Part shown: positions 102 to 31,619 of the stretch, one piece after another
Numbering within the stretch: position 1 is the first letter of the stretch
How the letters are laid out: each line of letters begins with the position of its first letter
Assembly: GCF_003334305.1 (NCBI RefSeq)
Contig: NZ_QOWS01000001.1
Length of the DNA: 64,000 bases
Source: Escherichia coli
GTDB taxonomy: Bacteria > Pseudomonadota > Gammaproteobacteria > Enterobacterales > Enterobacteriaceae
Strand: one strand, 5' to 3'
Translations under genes and position numbers: made by a program
The notes under the pieces: generated by a model
The model's database searches: none
What the model was told of the DNA's origin: nothing
The model's input: only the letters and a program-made list of their open reading frames with translations

Positions 102-247
102 TAGCACTTCTACTCCGTAATTGGCAAGACAAACGAGTATATCAGGCATTGGATGTGAATAAAGCGTATAGGTTTACCTCAAACTGCGCGGCTGTGTTAT
201 AATTTGCGACCTTTGAATCCGGGATACAGTAGAGGGATAGCGGTTAG
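102..247. promoter_or_regulatory. Divergent ubiG/gyrA promoter region
   Basis: 146-bp gap between the two divergent start codons; individual promoter elements not mapped. Confidence 0.4.
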
Positions 248-2875
248 ATGAGCGACCTTGCGAGAGAAATTACACCGGTCAACATTGAGGAAGAGCTGAA
301 GAGCTCCTATCTGGATTATGCGATGTCGGTCATTGTTGGCCGTGCGCTGCCAGATGTCCGAGATGGCCTGAAGCCGGTACACCGTCGCGTACTTTACGCC
401 ATGAACGTACTAGGCAATGACTGGAACAAAGCCTATAAAAAATCTGCCCGTGTCGTTGGTGACGTAATCGGTAAATACCATCCCCATGGTGACTCGGCGG
501 TTTATGACACGATCGTCCGTATGGCGCAGCCATTCTCGCTGCGTTACATGCTGGTAGACGGTCAGGGTAACTTCGGTTCCATCGACGGCGACTCTGCGGC
601 GGCAATGCGTTATACGGAAATCCGTCTGGCGAAAATTGCCCATGAACTGATGGCCGATCTCGAAAAAGAGACGGTCGATTTCGTTGATAACTATGACGGC
701 ACGGAAAAAATTCCCGACGTCATGCCAACCAAAATTCCTAACCTGCTGGTGAACGGTTCTTCCGGTATCGCCGTAGGTATGGCAACCAACATCCCGCCGC
801 ACAACCTGACGGAAGTCATCAACGGTTGTCTGGCGTATATCGATGATGAAGACATCAGCATTGAAGGGCTGATGGAACACATCCCGGGGCCGGACTTCCC
901 GACGGCGGCAATCATTAACGGTCGTCGCGGTATTGAAGAAGCTTACCGTACCGGTCGCGGCAAGGTGTATATCCGCGCTCGCGCAGAAGTGGAAGTTGAC
1001 GCCAAAACCGGTCGTGAAACCATTATCGTCCACGAAATTCCGTATCAGGTAAACAAAGCGCGCCTGATCGAGAAGATTGCGGAACTGGTAAAAGAAAAAC
1101 GCGTGGAAGGCATCAGCGCGCTGCGTGACGAGTCTGACAAAGACGGTATGCGCATCGTGATTGAAGTGAAACGCGATGCGGTCGGTGAAGTTGTGCTCAA
1201 CAACCTCTACTCCCAGACCCAGTTGCAGGTTTCTTTCGGTATCAACATGGTGGCATTGCACCATGGTCAGCCGAAGATCATGAACCTGAAAGACATCATC
1301 GCGGCGTTTGTTCGTCACCGCCGTGAAGTGGTGACCCGTCGTACTATTTTCGAACTGCGTAAAGCTCGCGATCGTGCTCATATCCTTGAAGCATTAGCCG
1401 TGGCGCTGGCGAACATCGACCCGATCATCGAACTGATCCGTCATGCGCCGACGCCTGCAGAAGCGAAAACTGCGCTGGTTGCTAATCCGTGGCAGCTGGG
1501 CAACGTTGCCGCGATGCTCGAACGTGCTGGCGACGATGCTGCGCGTCCGGAATGGCTGGAGCCAGAGTTCGGCGTGCGTGATGGTCTGTACTACCTGACC
1601 GAACAGCAAGCTCAGGCGATTCTGGATCTGCGTTTGCAGAAACTGACCGGCCTTGAGCACGAAAAACTGCTCGACGAATACAAAGAGCTGCTGGATCAGA
1701 TCGCGGAACTGTTGCGTATTCTTGGTAGCGCCGATCGTTTGATGGAAGTGATCCGTGAAGAGCTGGAGCTGGTTCGTGAACAGTTCGGTGACAAACGTCG
1801 TACTGAAATCACCGCCAACAGCGCAGACATCAACCTGGAAGATCTGATCACTCAGGAAGATGTGGTAGTGACGCTCTCTCACCAGGGCTACGTTAAGTAT
1901 CAGCCGCTTTCTGAATACGAAGCGCAGCGTCGTGGCGGGAAAGGTAAATCTGCCGCACGTATTAAAGAAGAAGACTTTATCGACCGACTGCTGGTGGCGA
2001 ACACTCACGACCATATTCTGTGCTTCTCCAGCCGTGGTCGCGTCTATTCGATGAAAGTTTATCAGTTGCCGGAAGCCACTCGTGGCGCGCGCGGTCGTCC
2101 GATCGTCAACCTGCTGCCGCTGGAGCAGGACGAACGTATCACTGCGATCCTGCCAGTGACCGAGTTTGAAGAAGGCGTGAAAGTCTTCATGGCGACCGCT
2201 AACGGTACCGTGAAGAAAACTGTCCTCACCGAGTTCAACCGTCTGCGTACCGCCGGTAAAGTGGCGATCAAACTGGTTGACGGCGATGAGCTGATCGGCG
2301 TTGACCTGACCAGCGGCGAAGACGAAGTAATGCTGTTCTCCGCTGAAGGTAAAGTGGTGCGCTTTAAAGAGTCTTCTGTCCGTGCGATGGGCTGCAACAC
2401 CACCGGTGTTCGCGGTATTCGCTTAGGTGAAGGCGATAAAGTCGTCTCTCTGATCGTGCCTCGTGGCGATGGCGCAATCCTCACCGCAACGCAAAACGGT
2501 TACGGTAAACGTACCGCAGTGGCGGAATACCCAACCAAGTCGCGTGCGACGAAAGGGGTTATCTCCATCAAGGTTACCGAACGTAACGGTTTAGTTGTTG
2601 GCGCGGTACAGGTAGATGACTGCGACCAGATCATGATGATCACCGATGCCGGTACGCTGGTACGTACTCGCGTTTCGGAAATCAGCATCGTAGGCCGTAA
2701 CACCCAGGGCGTGATCCTCATCCGTACTGCGGAAGATGAAAACGTAGTGGGTCTGCAACGTGTTGCTGAACCGGTTGACGAGGAAGATCTGGATACCATC
2801 GATGGCAGTGCCGCGGAAGGGGACGATGAAATCGCTCCGGAAGTGGACGTTGACGACGAGCCAGAAGAAGAATAA
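248..2875 (+). CDS. gyrA: DNA gyrase subunit A
   Basis: 875-aa ORF with N-terminus [47 protein letters not shown] and acidic C-terminal tail; quinolone-resistance region reads [11 protein letters not shown]. Confidence 0.98.
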
Positions 2876-3023
2876 TTTTACTTCTTCATGCCAAAAGGGA
2901 GCTATCTCCCTTGTTTGAATTGAAAAGTCCAGGCTGCAAAGTCTGGGCTTTTGTCGTATTAGGGCACGGTAAAGTTTGGCTGTGCCCGTAAAAAATGGCT
3001 GGCTATACACAAGGAATGTGGCA

Positions 3024-9870
<6,847 letters not shown>

Positions 9871-12301: not shown

Positions 12302-12353
12302 TCCATCCCTTCACACAACCTGGCTCTCTCTTTTTTCAGATAAGACTGCTGGG

Positions 12354-12400
12354 CGATCTGCCGACGCCAGGATATAACCATTAACAAGCGTCGGCAGATT
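12354..12400 (+). terminator. Stem-loop downstream of yfaP (possible terminator)
   Basis: Perfect 12-bp inverted repeat ATCTGCCGACGC / GCGTCGGCAGAT with ~20-nt loop, followed by T-rich TTTCTTATTTTT. Confidence 0.35.
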
Positions 12401-12575
12401 GGTCATTTCTTATTTTTCGTACTGAGAACTGTCCATCTACTCCGGCTTTCCTGGTTAAGGCAATGGTTTCTAAGCGATACGCATTATTGCAATGGTGACA
12501 GAACATTGCGGTAACACGCTTTTACCGCTACCTTAACCACACTCCATCGGTCACCTGAGGCGGAGCTTCGCCCCT

Positions 12576-15414: not shown

Positions 15415-15425
<11 letters not shown>
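12576..15425 (+). CDS. rcsC: Rcs phosphorelay hybrid sensor histidine kinase RcsC
   Basis: 949-aa ORF starting MKYLASFRTTLK on a TTG codon; contains histidine-kinase H-box (SHELRTP) and C-terminal receiver domain (VVDDHPINRR...). Confidence 0.95.
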
Positions 15426-15620
<195 letters not shown>

Positions 15621-19275: not shown

Positions 19276-19368
19276 AAAAAAAACCGAATGCGAGGCATCC
19301 GGTTGAAATAGGGGTAAACAGACATTCAGAAATGAATGACGGTAATAAATAAAGTTAATGATGATAGC
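19276..19368 (-). ncRNA. micF: MicF antisense small RNA
   Basis: Reverse complement of 19276-19368 reads GCTATCATCATTAACTTTATTTATTACCGTCATTCATTTCTGAATGTCTGTTTACCCC...GGATGCCTCGCATTCGGTTTTTTTT, ending in a hairpin plus U-tract; divergent from ompC. Confidence 0.9.
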
Positions 19369-19524
19369 GGGAGTTATTCTAGTTGCGAGTGAAGGTTTTG
19401 TTTTGACATTCAGTGCTGTCAAATACTTAAGAATAAGTTATTGATTTTAACCTTGAATTATTATTGCTTGATGTTAGGTGCTTATTTCGCCATTCCGCAA
19501 TAATCTTAAAAAGTTCCCTTGCAT

Positions 19525-27345: not shown

Positions 27346-27478
27346 GATGTGCCACATCCGGCATGGTATGCCGGATGTGGCGTATGCTGATAAGACGCGC
27401 CAGCGTCGCATCAGGCACCGGCTCGGGCGTTAGATGTCGGATGCGGCGTGACCGCCTTATTCGGCCTACGGGGTGCCG
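27346..27478. repeat. Cluster of three REP-type palindromic units between convergent mqo and eco
   Basis: GCCACATCCGGCATGGTATGCCGGATGTGGC (perfect palindrome), then ...GATAAGACGCGCCAGCGTCGCATCAGG..., then GATGTCGGATGCGGCGTGACCGCCTTATTCGGCCTAC. Confidence 0.8.
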
Positions 27479-27492
27479 CACTTCACAGCATT

Positions 27493-29136: not shown

Positions 29137-31619
29137 AACTCAGTCGTCGTAGCTTTATGAAAGCTAACGCCGTTGCGGCCGCTGCGGCGGCTGCCGGTCT
29201 CAGCGTGCCGGGCGTTGCCCGCGCCGTTGTTGGTCAGCAGGAAGCCATCAAATGGGATAAAGCGCCGTGCCGTTTCTGCGGTACTGGTTGCGGCGTTCTG
29301 GTCGGAACGCAGCAGGGGCGTGTGGTGGCCTGTCAGGGCGACCCGGACGCACCGGTTAACCGTAGCCTGAACTGCATTAAGGGCTATTTCCTGCCCAAGA
29401 TCATGTACGGTAAAGACCGTTTGACGCAGCCGCTGTTGCGTATGAAAAACGGTAAATATGACAAAGAAGGCGAATTTACCCCAATCACCTGGGATCAGGC
29501 CTTCGATGTGATGGAAGAGAAATTCAAAACCGCCCTGAAAGAAAAAGGACCGGAATCGATCGGTATGTTCGGTTCTGGTCAGTGGACTATCTGGGAAGGT
29601 TATGCCGCGTCCAAGCTGTTCAAAGCGGGCTTCCGTTCGAACAACATCGACCCGAACGCACGTCACTGTATGGCGTCGGCAGTAGTTGGCTTTATGCGTA
29701 CCTTTGGTATGGATGAGCCGATGGGCTGCTATGACGACATCGAGCAGGCTGACGCGTTTGTGCTGTGGGGCGCTAACATGGCGGAGATGCACCCGATCCT
29801 CTGGTCACGCATCACTAACCGTCGTCTCTCTAACCAGAACGTCACCGTGGCGGTGCTTTCTACCTACCAGCATCGTAGCTTCGAGCTGGCGGATAACGGC
29901 ATCATCTTTACGCCGCAATCTGACCTGGTGATCCTGAACTACATCGCCAACTATATCATTCAAAACAATGCGATAAATCAGGACTTCTTCAGCAAGCACG
30001 TTAACCTGCGCAAAGGGGCGACGGACATCGGCTACGGTTTACGTCCGACCCATCCGCTGGAAAAAGCAGCGAAGAATCCGGGTTCTGACGCCTCCGAACC
30101 GATGAGCTTTGAAGATTACAAAGCCTTCGTTGCTGAGTATACGCTGGAAAAAACCGCTGAAATGACCGGCGTGCCGAAAGACCAGTTAGAACAACTGGCG
30201 CAGCTGTATGCCGATCCGAACAAGAAAGTCATCTCCTACTGGACGATGGGCTTCAACCAGCATACCCGTGGTGTGTGGGCCAACAACCTGGTCTACAACC
30301 TGCACCTGCTGACCGGCAAAATTTCCCAGCCGGGTTGCGGTCCGTTCTCCCTGACCGGGCAGCCTTCTGCGTGTGGTACTGCGCGTGAAGTGGGCACCTT
30401 TGCTCACCGTCTGCCTGCGGACATGGTGGTGACTAACGAGAAACATCGTGATATCTGCGAGAAGAAGTGGAATATCCCGGGCGGCACCATTCCGGCAAAA
30501 ATCGGTCTGCACGCGGTGGCACAAGACCGTGCGCTGAAAGACGGCAAGCTGAATGTTTACTGGACCATGTGTACCAACAACATGCAGGCCGGGCCGAACA
30601 TCAATGAAGAGCGTATGCCAGGCTGGCGCGATCCGCGCAACTTCATCATCGTCTCCGATCCGTATCCGACAGTCAGTGCGCTGGCCGCCGACTTGATCCT
30701 GCCGACCGCAATGTGGGTAGAGAAAGAGGGCGCTTACGGTAACGCCGAACGCCGTACTCAGTTCTGGCGTCAGCAGGTACAGGCGCCAGGCGAAGCGAAA
30801 TCGGATCTCTGGCAGTTAGTCCAGTTCTCCCGCCGCTTCAAAACTGAAGAAGTATGGCCGGAAGAGCTGCTGGCGAAGAAACCGGAACTGCGTGGCAAAA
30901 CGCTGTACGAAGTTCTGTATGCCACCCCCGAAGTGAGCAAATTCCCGGTATCCGAACTGGCGGAAGATCAGCTGAACGATGAATCCCGCGAGCTGGGCTT
31001 CTATCTGCAAAAAGGGCTGTTCGAAGAGTACGCATGGTTTGGTCGCGGTCACGGTCACGATCTCGCGCCGTTCGATGACTACCACAAAGCGCGCGGTCTG
31101 CGCTGGCCGGTGGTGAACGGTAAAGAAACACAGTGGCGTTACAGCGAAGGTAACGACCCGTACGTGAAAGCGGGCGAAGGCTATAAGTTCTACGGTAAAC
31201 CGGATGGCAAAGCGGTGATCTTCGCACTGCCGTTCGAACCGGCGGCGGAAGCACCGGATGAAGAGTACGACCTGTGGCTCTCTACCGGACGCGTTCTGGA
31301 GCACTGGCACACCGGCAGTATGACTCGCCGTGTGCCGGAACTGCACCGCGCCTTCCCGGAAGCGGTCTTGTTTATTCACCCGCTGGATGCGAAAGCGCGC
31401 GATCTGCGCCGTGGCGACAAAGTGAAAGTGGTTTCTCGCCGTGGCGAAGTGATCTCGATTGTTGAAACGCGCGGTCGTAACCGTCCGCCACAGGGCCTGG
31501 TGTACATGCCGTTCTTCGACGCCGCACAGCTGGTTAACAAACTGACGCTGGATGCGACCGATCCGCTCTCGAAAGAGACGGACTTCAAGAAGTGCGCAGT
31601 CAAACTGGAGAAGGTGTAA
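29133..31619 (+). CDS. napA: Periplasmic nitrate reductase catalytic subunit NapA
   Basis: 828-aa ORF; twin-arginine signal SRRSFMK...ARA and N-terminal Cys cluster CRFCGTGCG. Confidence 0.97.

Follow-up and report, generated by a model that had tools for sequence, protein, structure and literature searches.

Fluoroquinolones engage gyrase through the chelation of Mg2+ by the C3/C4 keto-acid of the drug, with two of the waters of the metal ion hydrogen bonding to residues Ser83 and Asp87 of GyrA (PMC9917921). Both residues serve as anchors in the E. coli enzyme, where the bridge chiefly positions the drug, with ciprofloxacin-induced cleavage lost in the S83L, D87N, and double mutants (PMC9917921). 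The quinolone resistance-determining region (QRDR) of ParC (Ser80/Glu84) contains the homologous helix-4 motif HPHGDS and forms the same water-metal-ion bridge as GyrA, however ParC is a paralogue with its own locus elsewhere in the chromosome and has no GyrA box.

The ciprofloxacin MIC rises by a median of 24 fold with S83L alone, and by ~1,500–2,000 fold in the gyrA S83L/D87N plus parC S80I triple mutant, while G81D and D82G are gyrA changes with small effects (bioRxiv 10.1101/372086). Mutated gyrA was found in 194 of 195 (99%) ciprofloxacin-resistant clinical E. coli, and the trajectory to resistance begins with gyrA mutation (PMC5400412). Non-target mechanisms in combination can raise the MIC by up to ~250 fold without gyrA or parC mutations, and qnrB and qnrS are inversely correlated with mutations in these two genes (bioRxiv 10.1101/372086).

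The gyrA gene of K-12 MG1655 (b2231) is the quinolone-susceptible reference. The window, which is the whole 64-kb stretch of E. coli DNA analysed here, has the same GyrA protein, QRDR, and flanking genes (ubiG and yfaA) as MG1655, from which its gyrA differs by 12 synonymous changes, 3 of them in the QRDR (codons 85, 91, and 100). Several other strains, including A7 (NZ_CP028767.1) and H15 (NZ_CP010178.1), with the protein WP_001281242.1, show 100% nucleotide identity to the window over the gyrA region. Resistant clinical gyrA alleles (S83L, and S83L with D87N) are versions of the same gene, often on the same GTT codon 85 (GTT85) background as the window, however they carry TTG at codon 83 either alone (at least 485 of 5,426 complete genomes) or together with AAC at codon 87 (at least 1,702 of 5,426), in contrast to the TCG and GAC of the window.

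Results

Identity and setting of the gyrA gene

The gyrA gene lies close to the start of the window, where the following features were assigned:

248..2875 (+): gyrA coding sequence, DNA gyrase subunit A, 875 codons and a TAA stop (open reading frame list and translation)
611..613 (+): active-site Tyr122, codon TAT (residue present in the translation)
1925..1945 (+): GyrA box QRRGGKG, residues 560–566, of the C-terminal DNA-wrapping (beta-pinwheel) domain (motif search)
2771..2872 (+): acidic C-terminal tail, residues 842–875, the same as in K-12 (translation)
195..203 (+): TGTTATAAT, similar to an extended -10 element, upstream of gyrA (read from the sequence)
2895..2912 (+): terminator-like hairpin, 20 nt past the gyrA stop (predicted, consensus scan only)

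The 875-residue product of 248–2875 (+) shows 100% amino acid identity to MG1655 b2231 (NP_416734.1), and over the whole protein scores 1310 bits against the NCBIfam GyrA equivalog model TIGR01063 (cut-off 877) and 1259 against NF004043 (cut-off 902), whereas its scores against the ParC models TIGR01062 (580 bits, cut-off 629) and TIGR01061 (694, cut-off 813) fall below the thresholds. Among PDB structures it matches best to E. coli gyrase A in 6RKS/6RKW. Across its first 3 kb, the window has a match of at least 95% identity in every complete E. coli genome searched (5,426), several at 100%, with the region annotated as gyrA and adjoining ubiG in the matching records listed. Synteny is that of K-12, with ubiG upstream and divergent, followed by gyrA and then yfaA, yfaT, yfaS, yfaQ, and yfaP, and the peptide HPHGD appears a single time when the window is translated in all six frames.

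Tyr122 forms the covalent link to DNA, a catalytic role known from type IIA topoisomerases, and the QRRGGKG sequence is what we take to be the gyrase-specific, family-defining motif that tells gyrase from topoisomerase IV. The features tested for membership of the GyrA family, namely the equivalog score, Tyr122, the GyrA box, and the chromosomal position, are all present. A first-pass annotation of this DNA had named the gene gyrA and numbered its codons to match, and both assignments are borne out by the translation, the identity to b2231, and the TIGR01063 score. ATP-dependent negative supercoiling together with GyrB is expected of this protein because the characterised K-12 GyrA and the chains of 6RKS/6RKW have the identical sequence.

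Upstream of the gene, TGTTATAAT at 195–203 is the probable core promoter of gyrA as judged from its sequence; a consensus promoter scan did not call the element, for want of a good -35. The 247 nt upstream of gyrA, including the 146-nt ubiG-gyrA spacer, hold a single difference from K-12 at position 103, which adjoins the start of ubiG and lies ~95 nt from the element at 195–203. An upstream change altering gyrA expression was considered and set aside, with this sole base difference appearing irrelevant to the -10 element.

The QRDR and codons 83 and 87

The limits of the QRDR (Ala67–Gln106) were adopted from bioRxiv 10.1101/372086, and the features within it are as follows:

446..565 (+): QRDR, codons 67–106, all 40 residues the same as in K-12
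485..508 (+): hot-spot segment, codons 80–87, HGDSAVYD (direct reading and translation)
494..496 (+): codon 83, TCG, Ser, wild type, an anchor of the water-Mg2+ bridge (direct reading; role from PMC9917921)
506..508 (+): codon 87, GAC, Asp, wild type, the other residue anchoring the water-Mg2+ bridge (direct reading; role from PMC9917921)
502..502 (+): synonymous difference in codon 85, GTT here and GTC in K-12 (comparison with MG1655)

Positions 485–508 read CATGGTGACTCGGCGGTTTATGAC, which translates to HGDSAVYD. All 12 of the nucleotide differences between this gyrA and that of MG1655 are synonymous, leaving 0 amino acid differences over 875 residues, and those within the QRDR other than that of codon 85 lie at positions 520 (codon 91, CGC in K-12 and CGT in the window) and 547 (codon 100, TAT in K-12 and TAC in the window). 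Non-synonymous change at codon 83 and/or 87, the mark of the S83L/W/A and D87N/G/Y alleles, is absent from the gyrA of the window, and comparison of all 875 residues with MG1655 found no GyrA substitutions outside these codons or outside the QRDR. Residues 51, 67, 81, 82, 84, 106, 119, and 196 were checked individually and are wild type, with the identity of the whole protein to K-12 thus excluding the rarer gyrA changes (A51, A67, G81, D82, A84, Q106, A119, and A196).

The first-pass annotation had reported Ser83 as TCG at 494–496 and Asp87 as GAC at 506–508, and direct reading and translation agree with it on both codons. Its wild-type call for the gyrA QRDR proves stronger than was claimed, the entire GyrA being identical to that of MG1655, and the codons it associated with resistance (TTG or TGG at 83, and AAC, GGC, or TAC at 87) are the right ones for S83L/W and D87N/G/Y. 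The 11-residue motif that it placed at 485–508 contains the correct codons, however the motif in fact spans 479–511 (codons 78–88), which is a trivial mismatch in coordinates. The segment is almost certainly the hot-spot portion of the QRDR (helix alpha-4 region) in a wild-type, chromosomal E. coli gyrA, and the gyrase should be fully drug-sensitive. No feature of the sequence speaks against this reading.

Frequency of gyrA alleles in complete genomes

The identity bands of a whole-region similarity search were too coarse for allele counts, and six exact 30-mers covering codons 80–89 were therefore searched for in the 5,426 complete genomes of E. coli. The megablast search required a 28-nt exact word, such that a match in the census always has the queried triplets at codons 83 and 87. 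The 30-mers for the mutant alleles are distinct from the segment in the window. The numbers of genomes, with GTT or GTC at codon 85 (GTT85 or GTC85), were:

Wild type: GTT85 2,014; GTC85 639; total 2,653 (48.9%)
S83L alone: GTT85 413; GTC85 72; total 485 (8.9%)
S83L with D87N: GTT85 1,371; GTC85 331; total 1,702 (31.4%)
None of the six 30-mers: 586 genomes (10.8%)

S83L, with or without D87N, is present in at least 40% of the 5,426 genomes, a collection biased towards clinical and resistant isolates, and the 586 unmatched genomes may have different substitutions or further synonymous changes. About half of the genomes carry the wild-type segment, and the wild-type call is therefore informative rather than universal, discriminating between strains. 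The codon 85 variant of the window is the commoner background among the genomes counted (3,798 with GTT85 against 1,042 with GTC85). The GTT85/CGT91/TAC100 background is without effect on the protein, and matters only for probe- or melt-curve-based QRDR assays.

One gyrA copy in the public collection that matches the 30-mer for S83L with D87N sits in a record classed as plasmid, and the gyrA region has matches at two places in some genomes; a replicon given the wrong type, or a duplication, may explain this. As resistance alleles of gyrA are normally recessive to sensitive ones, a copy on a plasmid would be odd.

Comparison with the nearest genomes

The 64-kb window is colinear with H15 (11 SNPs) and with A7 (1 SNP), the latter, from orangutan faeces in the USA, being the nearest genome. 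The ParC of A7 is the same as that of K-12, with Ser80 and Glu84 intact, and the ParE of A7 differs from that of K-12 only by V147M, away from residues 416–460 and I529. These proteins of a close relative lend circumstantial support to the view that the source strain may likewise have a wild-type topoisomerase IV. The first-pass annotation had advised inspection of parC and parE elsewhere in the genome; both genes lie outside the window, and in the close relative A7 ParC matches K-12 and the ParE QRDR is unchanged.

Discussion

A wild-type gyrA QRDR of this kind, in one of the most thoroughly studied drug-target regions of bacteria, is already known textbook biology and nothing new, and its reading amounts to a routine genotypic susceptibility call, with the value for annotation lying in the statement that the first-step mutation of nearly all ciprofloxacin-resistant E. 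coli is missing. By the published mechanism, the Mg2+-water bridge holds the drug in the gyrase-DNA cleavage complex near the catalytic Tyr122 and traps the broken DNA. With both anchors intact in a protein identical to that of K-12, the encoded gyrase, as the primary target, would be expected to be drug-sensitive, and from the gyrA genotype we infer that the source strain is susceptible to fluoroquinolones. Since 194 of 195 resistant clinical isolates carried mutated gyrA, the wild-type gene argues strongly against high-level resistance.

The most durable alternative accepts the wild-type gyrA and places the source of fluoroquinolone non-susceptibility elsewhere in the strain, in target protection by qnr, in aac(6')-Ib-cr or qepA/oqxAB, in mutations of the efflux regulators marR/acrR/soxR, or in rare changes of gyrB or parE. 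The rise in MIC of up to ~250 fold brought about by combined non-target mechanisms and the inverse correlation of qnrB and qnrS with gyrA/parC mutations give this reading some substance, and its candidate loci all lie outside the window, with gene maps placing none of parC, parE, gyrB, marR, acrR, and soxR, nor any of the plasmid genes qnr, aac(6')-Ib-cr, qepA, and oqxAB, within the 64 kb. Against this, all but 1 of the 195 resistant clinical isolates had a mutated gyrA, and A7, as the nearest complete genome, has the K-12 ParC and no change in the ParE QRDR. We regard this alternative as unlikely, and it is in any case not in conflict with a finding that concerned gyrA only. Nothing in the window points to gyrA-independent reduced susceptibility; bcr, yojI, ompC, and micF are present, however in their wild-type state they are not recognised ciprofloxacin determinants. 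Reduced susceptibility despite a wild-type GyrA and probably a wild-type ParC, through, for example, qnr together with efflux de-repression, would be an uncommon gyrA-independent case and is distinctly unlikely. The window is a consensus sequence, in which a resistant sub-population would be invisible.

The first-pass annotation had limited its prediction of fluoroquinolone susceptibility with the words "as far as gyrA is concerned". The K-12-identical GyrA supports the prediction, and the qualifier was both needed and apt, being exactly right given that the remaining resistance loci are all located outside the window.

A resistance-conferring change elsewhere in gyrA, away from codons 83 and 87 or beyond the QRDR, would make a two-codon check misleading, and the small effects of G81D and D82G in the literature, together with the fact that the first reading checked those two codons only, lend the idea a certain plausibility. 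However, it is refuted by the match of 875 of 875 residues to MG1655, and the upstream region is one base off K-12, at 145 nt before the gyrA start codon, such that the probability left to this explanation is negligible.

That the segment comes from parC or another type IIA paralogue with an HPHGDS-like motif, to which the gyrA numbering would not apply, recalls the near-identical motif in the ParC of A7 (a 14-residue stretch), however it is ruled out to the point of virtual impossibility by scores below the TIGR01062 and TIGR01061 cut-offs and far above that of the GyrA model, by the GyrA box and acidic tail, by synteny and the position beside ubiG, and by the identity to b2231.

Other features of the window

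The gene order of the window is ubiG, gyrA, yfaA-yfaP, rcsCBD, micF/ompC, apbE, ada-alkB, yojI, mqo, eco, nap, ccm, narP, yejO, proL, yejM, bcr, yejABEF, pdeN, mepS, lpxT, yeiR, and yeiQ. RNA features were taken as Rfam matches at the gathering score:

15425–15501 and 15539–15615 (+): two naRNA4/REP-type elements between rcsC and rcsB
19276–19369 (-): MicF sRNA, upstream of ompC
44228–44301 (-): tRNA-Pro
48017–48042 (-): L25 (rplY) ribosomal-protein leader

All of these are expected for this region of E. coli.

The atoSCDAEB operon, which occupies ~7.4 kb between rcsC and yfaP in MG1655, is absent from the window, where yfaP and rcsC are separated at 12303–12499 by just 197 nt with no match in K-12, and H15 and A7 are arranged alike. 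The yfaS-type alpha-2-macroglobulin gene at 5251–9870 (+) is an intact long open reading frame, corresponding to a 4,515-nt coding sequence in H15 and A7 and to a pseudogene in MG1655. The autotransporter gene yejO (~41530–44121, +) is free of IS5K, the element by which the MG1655 copy is disrupted; the near-identical genomes H15 and A7 still have it annotated as a pseudogene, one with an internal stop. The eco-mqo spacer at 27387–27489 contains one copy of a ~103-nt unit, with MG1655 having five tandem copies of ~113 nt (91–94% identity among copies), making this a variable-copy intergenic repeat.

One of the 11 differences from H15, a SNP at 51156, falls inside bcr (50752–51942), which encodes a multidrug MFS efflux protein that is no recognised fluoroquinolone determinant, and the accession of the Bcr protein differs between H15 and A7. 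The sole difference from A7 in the 64 kb lies at position 29364, where the window has A and the other three (A7, H15, and K-12) have G. This private SNP is non-synonymous, replacing Gly (GGC) with Ser (AGC) at codon 78 of napA, which encodes the periplasmic nitrate reductase.
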